A stretch of DNA of 64,000 bases, from the IMG/VR virus record IMGVR_UViG_3300014205_000010, positions 27,321 through 91,320 of that record; one strand, written 5' to 3'. The DNA is from a virus (taxonomy: Duplodnaviria > Caudoviricetes). Numbering within the stretch: position 1 is the first letter of the stretch; every line of letters begins with the position of its first letter. A program made the position numbers and the translations under genes. Shown here piece after piece: positions 32,179 to 49,119 of the stretch. The notes beneath the pieces are model-generated. The model ran no database searches. It was not told the origin of the DNA and was given only the letters and a program-made list of their open reading frames with translations.

Positions 32179-32724
32179 TTAGTCTAAGTCGTCGTCCTCG
32201 TCGTCATCATCGTCGTCAAGGTCTTCATCATCGTCATCATCATCTTCGTCATCATCTTCGACAATTTCTTCGGGGTCTTCGTCCTCGTCGTCATCATCAT
32301 CGTCGTCAGCTTCGTCGGTGGTTTCAACCACTTCAGCTGCCTTGCGAGTTCCACGAACTGCTCTTTCCTTCGGTTCGGCTTCAAGTTCATCAAGCGAAAG
32401 CTCGATGCGTTCTGCGCGGCGAAGAAGGAACTTTGCCATGGTAATATGATCTCGGTAAACCTTGATATCAGCTTCAACAGCCTCAACCTTACCTGTTGCA
32501 TATGCCTTGAATTCATTGAGCGAGAGACGCATAGTCTCAGCAAACTTCTTACCAGTTTCTCTGAGATCTTCTACTGAAAAATCTGGCTTCTTCTGTTCCT
32601 TTGGCTTAGGAGCAGCCTTTGCCGGAGTCTTTGCCGCAGCCTTAGTGGTTGTCTTTGCTGCTGCAGGCTTTGCAGCTGGCTTTGCCGCAGGCTTAGCTGC
32701 AGGCTTACGAGTAGTTGCCGCCAT
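32179..32724 (-). CDS. Protein with histone-H1-like PAAK N-terminus, KF..RA.R core and acidic tail (paralog family member 1)
   Basis: KPAAKPAAKPAAKPAA; KFLLRRAERIELSLDEL; D/E-rich tail. Confidence 0.8.
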   Translation of the reverse strand: MAATTRKPAAKPAAKPAAKPAAAKTTTKAAAKTPAKAAPKPKEQKKPDFSVEDLRETGKKFAETMRLSLNEFKAYATGKVEAVEADIKVYRDHITMAKFLLRRAERIELSLDELEAEPKERAVRGTRKAAEVVETTDEADDDDDDDEDEDPEEIVEDDDEDDDDDDEDLDDDDDDEDDDLD

Positions 32725-33193
32725 TTTTTTTCTTCCCTTTTTCTAAATTTTCCATTTCCACCATTTCTGATGAAATTGGAAGTGTCATTAAGATAGTATA
32801 ACTTCTCGATCTTGATGTACATAGCTAAATTCGGATTTAACGATTAGTTTACATTGACATCTGATAAGTAAAATCGGAGGGCCGATTTTCTGCAGCGACC
32901 GACAGTTTTATCGGTCGACGAAAAAGTTGAACCGGCCGGCCGCTGCAGACAAAATCGCGTCTATAAGGGAGGGGCCAGAACTTCTAGAGAACCAGGAGCC
33001 ACTGAGTACTTCGTGCCTTCACTTTCTCGAAATTTATCCGTCTAATTCTAGACGGTATCCACGATTCTACAGCTAAAGCACAAGACCCAAGATCAAGAGA
33101 AGTAGCATGAACCATAACAGGATTCCAAGGCAGCCACCGCACCCGCATCCGTCATATTGATTGTTCTCGTTATGGATATTGACGACAACTGGC

Positions 33194-33424
33194 TTATCCA
33201 TGGGCAAAATTCTTGTGCCAAACCCAATCATTCAAAGCCCGCTCCCGGCTCGAAAAAAGCCCGGCGCCCTTAAGCTTACATGTCGGACAAATCCACTTGA
33301 ATCGTTCGATCACAAGAAATTCTGGTACTTCTATCTTTCCTTCACAGCGAGAGCATAGCATAGTACTTTGGCCGAAGCTATTATCGAGGGTTACTCGACC
33401 CGTTCCATTACATTCAGGGCACAT
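33194..33424 (-). CDS. Small zinc-finger protein (CxxCxGxG + C2H2-like)
   Basis: CPECNGTG, CSRCEG, CPTC...H; AAGGAG RBS. Confidence 0.6.
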   Translation of the reverse strand: MCPECNGTGRVTLDNSFGQSTMLCSRCEGKIEVPEFLVIERFKWICPTCKLKGAGLFSSRERALNDWVWHKNFAHG

Positions 33425-33562
33425 CTTGAACTCCTTTCATTCATCATATCCTCTCTTGGACCAAATGTAAATTTACCTGACAGTTCTTCACTTGTCTACC
33501 TATATATATACACATTAAACAGTTACATGAGATAAAAAATGTTGCTAGCTCTAGGGCAGCTA

Positions 33563-33640
33563 TATACTTCCTGATCAGGATGTTATATGATAAATATGTT
33601 AAAGTGAACCTCAAAAAAACTTCACGGTTCACACTAGGAG
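33563..33640 (+). promoter_or_regulatory. Early promoter/stem-loop/RBS cassette (variant stem)
   Basis: TATACT-17-TATGAT, stem GTGAACC/GGTTCAC, AGGAG. Confidence 0.75.
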
Positions 33641-33646
33641 AAAAAC

Positions 33647-33976
33647 ATGGAAACCGCAACCAAGTCCACGAATACGCAGCCCGCTGATAAGCCTCAGACT
33701 CCGGTCGAAGAGCCGAAGGCTGATGAGACCAAGGCCGAAAAACCGAAGAAGACTGAGCCTGTCATCAAGGAAAGCGTTGCTCTTTCCACTGCCAAGCAGA
33801 AGTTTCTTCAGCAGACTCGCAAGGCGGCCCAGGATTACCTCGTCGTCGTCGAAGCCGAATTCAATGCCGTTGAACCCGGTCATCCGCACTACAGCGGTCT
33901 GAAGTTTGCGAAGATTCGTGCAGAGCGCGTGATCTTCAGTTGCGACGAACTCAGCCGCGGCCAAATCAGCAAGTAA
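33647..33976 (+). CDS. Early protein, KF..RA.R paralog family member 2
   Basis: KFAKIRAERVIFSCDEL; first gene after the cassette. Confidence 0.8.
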   Translation: METATKSTNTQPADKPQTPVEEPKADETKAEKPKKTEPVIKESVALSTAKQKFLQQTRKAAQDYLVVVEAEFNAVEPGHPHYSGLKFAKIRAERVIFSCDELSRGQISK

Positions 33977-34066
33977 CAACTTAGGTAGGTGCTAAACTCG
34001 GCTGGGTGTTCAGTTTGGTTAAATGGTTGCCCTCTCAACCAGCCTACCTAAAAGAGGAGAAACAAA

Positions 34067-34450
34067 ATGCCTAAGACATGGATGGTTACCAAAATCGGGT
34101 TCGACCCTATGTACTGGGTTGACTTTTTCGAAACTCAAAAGCAGGTCATTGACTTTCTTGCTGATCAGCGCAAGACTTATCCCGATAAGTATTTTTATCG
34201 GGTTTCAAAATTTGTGCCTGAAAGCGAGCTCAGCAGCTTCGATCACAAGACTCCATGTTGTGGAATTCAGCTCAGTGAAGAAATTGACATGGCTGAATTC
34301 GCCAACTATACGATCGATTGCAGCTGTGGAAAAATCTTGATTGTCGTTGAAGATCATTTTGAGGACTTCCACATTCACATGAATGCGAAAGACCCGCGAT
34401 GGCCTGTCGATGGTAGTAACACCGGTTACATCGAAGTCAAGGAGGACTAG
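34067..34450 (+). CDS. Hypothetical early protein
   Basis: GAGGAG RBS; Cys motifs. Confidence 0.7.
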   Translation: MPKTWMVTKIGFDPMYWVDFFETQKQVIDFLADQRKTYPDKYFYRVSKFVPESELSSFDHKTPCCGIQLSEEIDMAEFANYTIDCSCGKILIVVEDHFEDFHIHMNAKDPRWPVDGSNTGYIEVKED

Positions 34451-34702
34451 ATGCTCTGGGAAATCATGGCGAAAATGCTTCGAGAACGTGGTGCAAGTTA
34501 CCATGTCAATCCTCGAACAGACATCGTAGATGTCACAATGCCAGGAGGTAGGGTATTTGATTTTACCTTGCCTGCTGAAAAAGTCTTCAAGGAAGATTCC
34601 ATGGAGTATATTCGTCCAGTTTATGGAGTTGACGATATGAACTGGGAATCAGAAACCGCTCCAACGAAGCATATTCGAACAAAAGGACAGCATTGGATAT
34701 GA
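34451..34702 (+). CDS. Hypothetical early protein
   Basis: GGAGG RBS, coupled. Confidence 0.65.
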   Translation: MLWEIMAKMLRERGASYHVNPRTDIVDVTMPGGRVFDFTLPAEKVFKEDSMEYIRPVYGVDDMNWESETAPTKHIRTKGQHWI

Positions 34703-47594: not shown

Positions 47595-47732
47595 TCAGCA
47601 CGTAGGCTCCTTGTGGAGCAGGCACCGGCGTCGGCCGCAGGCGTAGCAGGAAGGTCCGAGCTTGGCCTCGTGATGGTCGAGGGTGGTGTTGATGGCGGAG
47701 AGAAGGTTCTCGATCTGGGTCAGGGTGTCCAT
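47595..47732 (-). CDS. 45-aa Cys-containing protein (below cutoff)
   Basis: GGAGAA RBS after an AGAGCGG hairpin; MDTLTQIENLLSAINTTLDHHEAKLGPSCYACGRRRCLLHKEPTC. Confidence 0.65.
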   Translation of the reverse strand: MDTLTQIENLLSAINTTLDHHEAKLGPSCYACGRRRCLLHKEPTC

Positions 47733-47751
47733 TGTGGTTCTCCAGGAGGTG

Positions 47752-47776
47752 GGAGGAGAGCCGCTCTCTCTCCTCC
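47752..47776 (-). promoter_or_regulatory. AGAGCGR-loop hairpin before RBS (copy 4)
   Basis: GGAGGAGAG-AGAGCGG-CTCTCCTCC on the - strand. Confidence 0.65.
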
Positions 47777-47788
47777 GGGCGTGGTGGG

Positions 47789-47998
47789 TTAGGCCTTGAA
47801 GGACTTGCCCTTGAGCGCTTCGCGGATGGTGTGCTCGAGGCGGGTGGCTCGGATGTGGAGGAACTTGTCCTCGCTCTCGGTGAGCTTCGTCCGGTCCATC
47901 TTCGAGATCTTGGTGACGAGCGGCTGGATGGCAGTCAGGGCCTTCGTGAGGGCTTCGACTTCGGTGGTGGGGATCGAGGTGGTGGTGTTGTCTGCCAT
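47789..47998 (-). CDS. KF..RA.R paralog family member 3
   Basis: GGAGAA RBS before ATG at 47998; DKFLHIRATRLEH. Confidence 0.8.
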   Translation of the reverse strand: MADNTTTSIPTTEVEALTKALTAIQPLVTKISKMDRTKLTESEDKFLHIRATRLEHTIREALKGKSFKA

Positions 47999-48108
47999 GG
48001 TGTGATTCTCCAAATCTGCGATCGCGCAGGCGACTGGGTGGGCGGAGTGGATGGTGGGAGCGGAGGTGGTGGGTGGTGGGATGGGCTTCTCCGTTTGTTG
48101 ATAGATTA

Positions 48109-48137
48109 ATTATACACCATCTGGAGCGGGACGTATA
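48109..48137 (-). promoter_or_regulatory. Sigma70-type promoter of the early class
   Basis: TATACG-17-TATAAT. Confidence 0.7.
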
Positions 48138-48852
48138 TAACCTGCCGAGAAAAAGTAGTAAAAACTTTGTATAGCTGGCCGGTCGTTCCTACCCAAGTCT
48201 CGTTCTGGCCCATCCTCCGTCTAGTTCTAGCGCCGTCGAGCTCCTGCGCTGGTCGAGAGCGGGCCTCCTCCACGAACGGCGCCGTTTTTCGCCCAGCGCT
48301 GTCGTCCGGTCGGGGTTGAGTCTGGTCCTTCGCCAAGTCTAGCCTGGACTCGAGCCTGGTCCGAGGGTCGGTGGCTGTGATCTACAGCCCAACGACACCG
48401 TCACCCTCCTGGTGCTCGCCGCCGGCCCGAAGCAGGCCGCCTCGCCACGGCTCTGGCACGAGACCTGGTGGTTCGTACGGCCAGCCTCACCGCTCTAGAA
48501 GTTACAACTTGGTTACAATAGTTACAACTAAGTATACAAGCTTACTATATGATGTTTCACATGAAACGTAATAAAAAGTTACAACTAAGAGAACGTTTGT
48601 ATACCATATGTACCCTGTTGAACGTTTAAGAGATTGTCGATAGTAAGAGTATGAACATCTTCACTCGCATCAACAATCGACAACGCATCAACAATCGTCT
48701 GAGCATCATTCGCATTACGCGTAAATGGCGCTAAGATTCTTACGATTCTCATACTGTTGCTATCGCTCAAACAGACGATAATAACAGTGTAAGGGTCGTA
48801 AGAGCCCTGGGCTCAACAAGTGCCACGATGCAATTCGTAAATGGAGAGAATC

Positions 48853-49119
48853 ATGGAAACGACTACGAACAACACCCTCAACGTCAACGCTGTCGAAGCG
48901 TTCGATGCTGCTACGCGCGCTGCAATCAAGAGCGCACATGCAATCGTCAAGGCAACGACGAAGGAAAAGTTGAGCGACCGTGATGACAAGTTCATCTACA
49001 TTCGCGCTATGCGCGTGATTCACTTCGGTTTGGAATCGCTTGACCGCAAGTCATACGATTCGCCAGAACAAGCCATGACGAAATCGAAGACGCTTGCGGC
49101 CATTCTCGCAAGCAAGTAA
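48853..49119 (+). CDS. KF..RA.R paralog family member 4
   Basis: GGAGAG RBS before ATG at 48853; DKFIYIRAMRVIH. Confidence 0.8.
   Translation: METTTNNTLNVNAVEAFDAATRAAIKSAHAIVKATTKEKLSDRDDKFIYIRAMRVIHFGLESLDRKSYDSPEQAMTKSKTLAAILASK

Follow-up and report, generated by a model that had tools for sequence, protein, structure and literature searches.

A rare family of small predicted helical-hairpin proteins, present as four diverged paralogs in an uncultured landfill phage

The genome of an uncultured phage from a landfill metagenome encodes four diverged members of a small-protein family, here named paralogs A, B, C and D (Table 1), that share a predicted antiparallel two-helix hairpin of ~60 residues. 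The genome is IMG/VR virus record IMGVR_UViG_3300014205_000010, which is 91,320 bp long with 123-bp direct terminal repeats, and the stretch analysed here, the window, comprises the 64,000 bp at its bases 27321–91320. The phage is a siphovirus-like tailed phage. It encodes a tape-measure protein, DnaB and other helicases, and a DnaE-type polymerase whose identity to the polymerases of deposited phages does not exceed 37%, and contigs that are 90–95% identical to its DNA were found in two wastewater metagenomes. The paralogs are distant from the head and tail module and sit in a 25-kb stretch (30–56 kb of the window) that is flanked by a replication module and a nucleotide-metabolism module. 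This stretch contains mainly small ORFan genes, which are the typical content of phage early regions. We infer, with a probability of roughly 40%, that the paralogs are small, oligomerising, nucleic-acid-associated proteins that serve as early regulators or architectural proteins.

Relationships and predicted fold of the four paralogs

A first-pass annotation of the window had placed four open reading frames (ORFs) at the positions in Table 1, and all of them were found there, together with the peptides it quoted. A six-frame translation of the complete genome (91,320 bp) contains the motif it described as common to the four, KF-x2-[IR]-RA-x-R, exactly four times; 0.012 occurrences are expected from composition, and 200 shuffles gave a mean of 0.005. 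The upstream helix-1 pattern that it assigned to three members (F-x4-R) is present in A, B and D. When an 18-sequence family profile was used to search the genome, precisely these four ORFs were matched, with no fifth place at E ≤ 10.

Pairwise BLASTP comparisons connected C with D (4e-8) and A with B (5e-5). Across these pairs the matches were weak (B–D, 1e-3; A–C, 0.013), and there was no match for A–D or B–C. Profile alignment, which the annotation had proposed as a check alongside structure prediction, was performed with hhalign using alignments enlarged with metagenomic orthologs. B matched A with 95.7% probability (E = 9.7e-9) and C/D matched B with 89% probability (E = 2.4e-6, over 41 columns), while the match of C/D to A was not significant (probability 1.5%, E = 0.034). 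Thus, the link between C/D and A is transitive only, and the unity of the family rests on B as a bridge. When hidden Markov models (HMMs) were run against the 1,391 ORFs of the genome, A (7.8e-5), C (0.09) and D (0.62) were among the best non-self matches of the B HMM, and the best non-self match of the C/D HMM was B (0.031). A maximum-likelihood tree of the cores split A and B from C and D with support of 100/100 and a very long branch between the two halves; support for the A and C clades was 100/99 and 91/93, respectively.

Two unrelated families, A/B and C/D, that acquired a short basic helix motif by convergence would also yield a non-significant C/D–A alignment, empty BLASTP comparisons for A–D and B–C, in-genome HMM values as poor as those of C and D against B, and a very long branch between the halves. 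However, the C/D–B alignment is significant over its 41 columns, the motif has an identical placement in both halves, at the start of helix 2 after the turn, in an identical predicted fold, and the halves are reciprocal best non-self matches among the 1,391 ORFs. In addition, when 1.84 billion proteins were searched with a mixed profile built from the four sequences, every protein retrieved belonged to one of the four types. Convergence appears improbable on this balance, and A, B, C and D very probably make up one real protein family, with B as the bridge.

The search with the mixed profile covered 1.84 billion representative proteins and returned 10 proteins (clusters) of 67–181 aa, each of which could be assigned to one of the four types. 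As no length filter was applied, fused forms of the family are not evident. Additional members came from word-indexed homolog searches, one of them run without the tails of A because the full-length alignment was swamped by low-complexity words. Orthologs with 35–55% identity were found for A (P0017, P0021 and P0029), B (nine clusters), C (P0018, P0024–26 and P0028) and D (P0016 and P0027); P0013 and P0020 are further A-type orthologs and P0007 is a further C ortholog. The database form of D, P0006, begins at the same ATG as the gene in the window. All A types keep a basic tail of varied sequence, the PDF(T/S)V motif, the YRDH(I/V)T loop and an acidic tail, which ends in DDDLD in five of the six A-type sequences and in ELDD in P0029. 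As each type has orthologs in other metagenomes and the tree separates the types, the four paralogs predate the split of these phages and are old.

Beyond low-complexity noise, A, B, C and D had no match in Pfam, PHROGs, NCBIfam, PADLOC or PDB sequences, and the weak curated-library matches of A cover its low-complexity tails. No relative was returned from 50,697 phage records (tblastn), from 185,579 prokaryote genomes, or from the IMG/VR viral contigs outside this record, which were searched with P0004 and with the B, C/D and A alignments. Three distant IMG/VR records that share the DnaE-type polymerase lack the family, and these records are 16–30% complete. By these searches, the family is a genuine new ORFan family that was previously undescribed, and it is very rare, limited to a few uncultured phages from landfill, wastewater and soil.

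The AlphaFold2 model obtained with the B alignment has a disordered segment (residues 1–40) followed by helices at 44–74 and 82–104, with a predicted local distance difference test (pLDDT) score above 90 in the core. The model from the C/D alignment has helices at 15–38 and 47–68 (mean pLDDT 79.5) and a third, C-terminal helix that is specific to D, at 75–91 in the numbering of that model. In the B and D models the common motif starts helix 2 directly after the turn, and structure prediction thus gave matching hairpins rather than unrelated folds. Taken with the profile–profile scores, the empty searches of curated libraries and the orthologs of each type, this bears out the earlier proposal of an undescribed helical-hairpin family in four diverged versions. 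Searches with the models (PDB Foldseek, VIA wide, BFVD and ESM Atlas) returned only generic helical rows, which included a Rop variant, HisKA DHp, the AcrA hairpin, HR1, FliS and uncharacterised phage proteins. Prediction of a C+D complex gave a median score of 0.18, where the mark is 0.32.

Around the hairpin the paralogs differ. From its N to its C terminus, A consists of an Ala/Lys/Pro-rich tail, a PDF(S/T)V motif, the hairpin core with the YRDHIT loop and KFLLRRAER, and an acidic tail. The N-terminal tail (residues 1–46) is made up of PAAK/AAKP-like repeats that are visible in the DNA as 12-nt periodic repeats, and has a net charge of +12 and an isoelectric point (pI) of 11.0. The C-terminal tail is 53 residues long, has a net charge of –41 and ends in DDDLD. 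In B, residues 1–40 form a Lys/Glu/Pro-rich disordered tail, and the turn, EPGHPHYS, is non-acidic and His/Pro-rich and precedes KFAKIRAER. C is the hairpin alone, with the acidic turn TESEDKF; the C and D types keep acidic residues at this turn, in the pattern [DE]-x-[ED]-D ahead of KF (K-L-x-[DE]-x-[ED]-D-K-F). In B, C and D the hairpin core has a mildly basic character (net +3 to +4, pI 9.3–9.8). The invariant residues of the family, K, F, R, R and E, share a single face of helix 2.

Promoters, gene arrangement and base composition

A generic scan for sigma-70 promoters and terminators gave results at chance level only. The promoters emerged from the aligned upstream regions of B and two orthologous loci, which revealed a conserved –35/–10 pair followed by a leader stem that is kept while its sequence varies. 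The promoter pattern, T-N-TAC-N5-G-N2-C-N2-G-N6-TA-N2-AT, is matched exactly at 13 sites in the window, where the chance expectation is ~1 match at ≤1 mismatch; the pattern was derived from 12 of the 13 sites, and the independent part of this result is the thirteenth site and a shuffle control. All 13 copies are within 30.2–55.6 kb (30236–55555), and the set is a phage-specific, putatively early class.

Promoters had been seen for three of the paralogs in the first pass. Indeed, A, B and C each lie directly behind a copy of the 13-member class, and no copy is in front of D. The annotation had further suggested that each paralog leads its transcription unit and that the family is expressed first. 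A, B and C are the first genes behind their promoters and belong to the early-region class, which agrees in part with both suggestions, but D does not, and at least nine other genes likewise head early-class promoter cassettes. Heading a unit is therefore characteristic of the region as a whole rather than of this family, and the promoter class is shared with those other genes.

The fold of the A leader has a z value of –2.2. In loci L003 and L004, a stem with a different sequence is found at the position equivalent to the leader stem-loop of B. Between the promoter and the ribosome-binding site (RBS) of C, at 48000–48100 (–), is a leader of ~95 nt that is C-rich, nearly G-free and contains CCCAYCC-like repeats. 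Downstream of seven + strand promoter copies (34879, 37759, 41419, 42654, 43685, 44007 and 46304) comes a near-identical leader hairpin, TATACACTG...CAGTGTATA, with AGGAG after it. The conserved promoter spacer and this hairpin resemble sites on which a regulator or an RNase would act.

Both A–B and C–D are divergent gene pairs, as first described, with start-to-start gaps of 922 and 854 bp, respectively. The C–D gap contains no supported ORF. The A–B gap had also been called mostly non-coding, which proved incorrect: ~40% of it is coding, and it holds a Zn-ribbon gene with its own promoter and a conserved membrane peptide gene. A homolog of the membrane peptide (E = 2e-6) is divergent to the B ortholog in L004, which is from another metagenome, and synteny extends downstream of B, where the gene at 34451–34702 corresponds to one that follows the B ortholog in L003. 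Rfam returned nothing in either spacer beyond the three tRNAs. A non-coding element of ~70 nt, CCGGCCGGCC..CTGCAG..TCTATAAGG..GGGCCAGAA..AGAAC, is common to the A–B spacer (32930–32995) and the left edge of a GC-rich block that contains C (47150–47215), with a partial second copy at 47116–47139. All four genome sites of GGCCGGCC are within the two regions that carry this element.

The strong difference in DNA composition between copies that was reported earlier is evident from the GC content at third codon positions, which is 0.41 in A, 0.65 in B, 0.90 in C and 0.64 in D, in a window with an overall GC content of 0.41. C is within a block of 62–67% GC (47.1–48.4 kb) and D is within a CC/GG-poor block (48.6–49.4 kb). 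These differences suggest that the paralogs came in with blocks acquired on separate occasions and did not arise by recent local duplication. An assembly chimera was ruled out as the source of the GC-rich block, as contigs from two independent wastewater runs (90–95% identity) span both of its borders. A transposon-like element carrying C was also considered, and was dropped because the inverted repeats that flank C were not significant by blastn.

The D cassette is bounded by repeats. Three AGTTACAACT palindromes are found at 48500–48586, and a 16-nt exact direct repeat, GTTACAATAGTTACAA, at 48512 and 49471 (49471–49486) flanks the cassette. The genome has 15 GTTACAA sites, six of which lie on either side of this 1-kb CC/GG-poor cassette, which comprises D and a 72-aa Cys-rich ORF; the second cluster region is 49468–49491. 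The repeats could be insertion scars or operator sites. A near-perfect 17-bp inverted repeat without a clear U-run is located at the end of the cassette (49422–49465) and is a possible bidirectional terminator.

Small Cys-rich, Zn-ribbon-like genes are found on each side of A, at 31939–32154 (–) and 33194–33424 (–), and the Cys-rich ORF of the D cassette (49137–49355), 3′ of D, is a third. Elsewhere in the region, ~1.3 kb at 45000–46300 lacks a convincing ORF and has strongly negative GC and AT skews. It lies after the last + strand early genes and before the promoter at 46304, and Rfam gave no match in it.

Table 1. Positions in the window of the four paralogs and associated features
Feature	Position	Strand	Details
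Paralog A	32179–32724	–	181 aa
Early-class promoter of A	32793–32821	–	TGTACA, 17 nt, TATACT; followed by leader hairpin and RBS
Membrane peptide gene	33073–33201	–	42 aa; in A–B spacer
Zn-ribbon gene	33194–33424	–	76 aa; CxxCxGxG; strong Shine-Dalgarno; weak Pfam Zn-ribbon matches; in A–B spacer
Early-class promoter of Zn-ribbon gene	33443–33471	–	13-copy pattern
Early-class promoter of B	33563–33591	+	TATACT, 17 nt, TATGAT; conserved before B orthologs in L003 and L004
Leader stem-loop of B	33604–33632	+	GTGAACC...GGTTCAC; between promoter and RBS
Paralog B	33647–33976	+	109 aa
Paralog C	47789–47998	–	69 aa
Early-class promoter of C	48109–48137	–	TATACG, 17 nt, TATAAT
GTTACAA / AGTTACAACT repeat cluster	48497–48590	+	Upstream of D
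Paralog D	48853–49119	+	88 aa; from ATG after GGAGAG RBS

Possible functions of the family

Short helical hairpins generally associate to form four-helix bundles, examples being Rop, DHp domains and WXG100 proteins. In the mechanism that we favour, the hairpins of the phage family would pair in this way, with themselves or with each other, and the bundles would serve, at an early stage of infection, as small regulatory or architectural proteins associated with nucleic acids. In histone H1, AlgP and mycobacterial HupB, tails rich in Ala, Lys and Pro bind DNA non-specifically, and the histone-H1/AlgP-like Ala-Lys-Pro tail of A would hold DNA in the same non-specific manner. The long acidic tail of A could mask its basic tail or dock a basic partner, and B, C and D, with short tails or none, would act on different targets. 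The basic cores of B, C and D and the +12 N-terminal tail of A lean towards a nucleic-acid partner. An early role would fit the promoters before A, B and C, the promoter and leader stem that are kept at B orthologs, and the surroundings of small ORFan genes.

Several observations weigh against this reading. No DNA- or RNA-binding fold (helix-turn-helix, ribbon-helix-helix or Zn finger) was found in the family, and bare helical hairpins are more often protein–protein modules. Whole A is strongly acidic (net –29, pI 4.3), as its polyacidic tail outweighs its basic tail. The structural matches are all generic (Foldseek PDB E > 0.7, BFVD E > 0.1 and VIA Z ≤ 6.9), D has no early-class promoter in front, and the alignment of C/D with A is not significant.

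Alternatively, the paralogs could be protein-binding host-takeover or counter-defence factors, with a hairpin that docks on a host protein such as RNA polymerase, a defence enzyme or a nucleoid protein and, in A, an acidic tail that serves as a DNA mimic or docking tail. The helical hairpin is a common protein–protein module, and the closest rows in the structure searches were HisKA dimerisation hairpins, an HR1 domain, phyllogen and an anti-CRISPR. The genes are within the early ORFan region. In its acidity, the turn kept by the C and D types is reminiscent of the tips of the Gre/DksA coiled coils. SSB and T7 gp2.5 use their acidic ends for docking, and the 53-residue, –41 tail of A retains its DDDLD end in five of the six A-type sequences. 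However, no PADLOC, Pfam or PHROG family was matched, the turn of the B type is non-acidic and His/Pro-rich, and there is no globular domain of the Gre or DksA kind. We regard such a role as the main rival, somewhat less likely than the nucleic-acid-associated one.

A more specific possibility is that the paralogs are four-helix-bundle regulators that read the early cassettes of the phage itself. Their target would be the spacer G-N2-C-N2-G between the –35 and –10 elements of the 13 promoters or, alternatively, the leader RNA hairpin before the RBS. Each paralog would control its own horizontally acquired early-gene block, which would account for copies of differing composition being kept side by side at the heads of blocks. 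We regard this as quite unlikely.

It is very unlikely that the paralogs have a structural or assembly function, for example as scaffold-like or chaperone-like proteins or as internal proteins packaged in the virion, and that their location is incidental: the flagellar export chaperone FliS and tail-assembly-chaperone-like helices are among the top structural rows, and packaged DNA-associated proteins also have basic and acidic tails, but all of these structural matches are at chance level and the genes are in the promoter-cassette early region, remote from the head and tail module.

Comparison with known hairpin proteins

Rop/Rom of ColE1 plasmids, a helical hairpin of 63 aa, dimerises with itself into a four-helix bundle, and its ligands are RNA kissing loops. 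The phage hairpins resemble it in core size, in predicted topology (two antiparallel helices and a short turn) and in having conserved F and R residues on one helix face, and a lengthened Rop variant, 9cfs_A, was among the Foldseek rows at chance level (E = 1.9, template modelling scores 0.46/0.57). However, there is no sequence relation, a Pfam scan of the four proteins at E ≤ 1 was empty for Rop (PF01815), and Rop has no tails and is encoded by a single-copy plasmid gene.

The WXG100 proteins EsxA and EsxB are paralogous helical hairpins of ~100 aa that heterodimerise. They share with the phage family the small helical hairpin, the adjacent paralog pairs and the presence of several diverged copies per genome. 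The phage proteins differ in lacking W-x-G, with turns of EPGHPHYS (B), YRDHIT (A) and (D/E)SEDK (C and D), and in having no Pfam match. Moreover, the phage genes are divergent rather than co-directional, with no secretion system nearby.

The remaining likenesses are confined to parts of the proteins. Residues 1–46 of A resemble the histone-H1-like tails of the bacterial DNA-binding proteins AlgP, mycobacterial HupB and PhaF in being low-complexity Ala/Lys/Pro sequence with a charge of +12, but the likeness is limited to this tail, the folded domain is unrelated to HU or H1, and A also has the polyacidic tail that outweighs the basic one. Gre and DksA, factors that enter the secondary channel of RNA polymerase, share the antiparallel coiled-coil hairpin, with acidic turn residues that are conserved in the C and D types only; the turns of A and B are non-acidic, and the family lacks a globular or Zn-finger domain and matched nothing in Pfam or NCBIfam. 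The DHp (HisKA) hairpin of histidine kinases carries an H-box with the phospho-accepting His and precedes an ATPase domain. Resemblance to it is confined to rows from the Atlas structure search. There is no HisKA or HATPase Pfam match, and the paralogs, at 69–181 aa, have no further domain.

What the analysis establishes is a new ORFan family, not a new mechanism. New activities in host takeover, anti-defence and regulation come mainly from small early phage proteins, most of which are singletons with no relatives. The family described here stands out in having four long-diverged copies kept within a single genome, a simple fold predicted with confidence and a clear connection to a defined set of promoters, and it offers tractable proteins together with candidate DNA and RNA targets for bench work.

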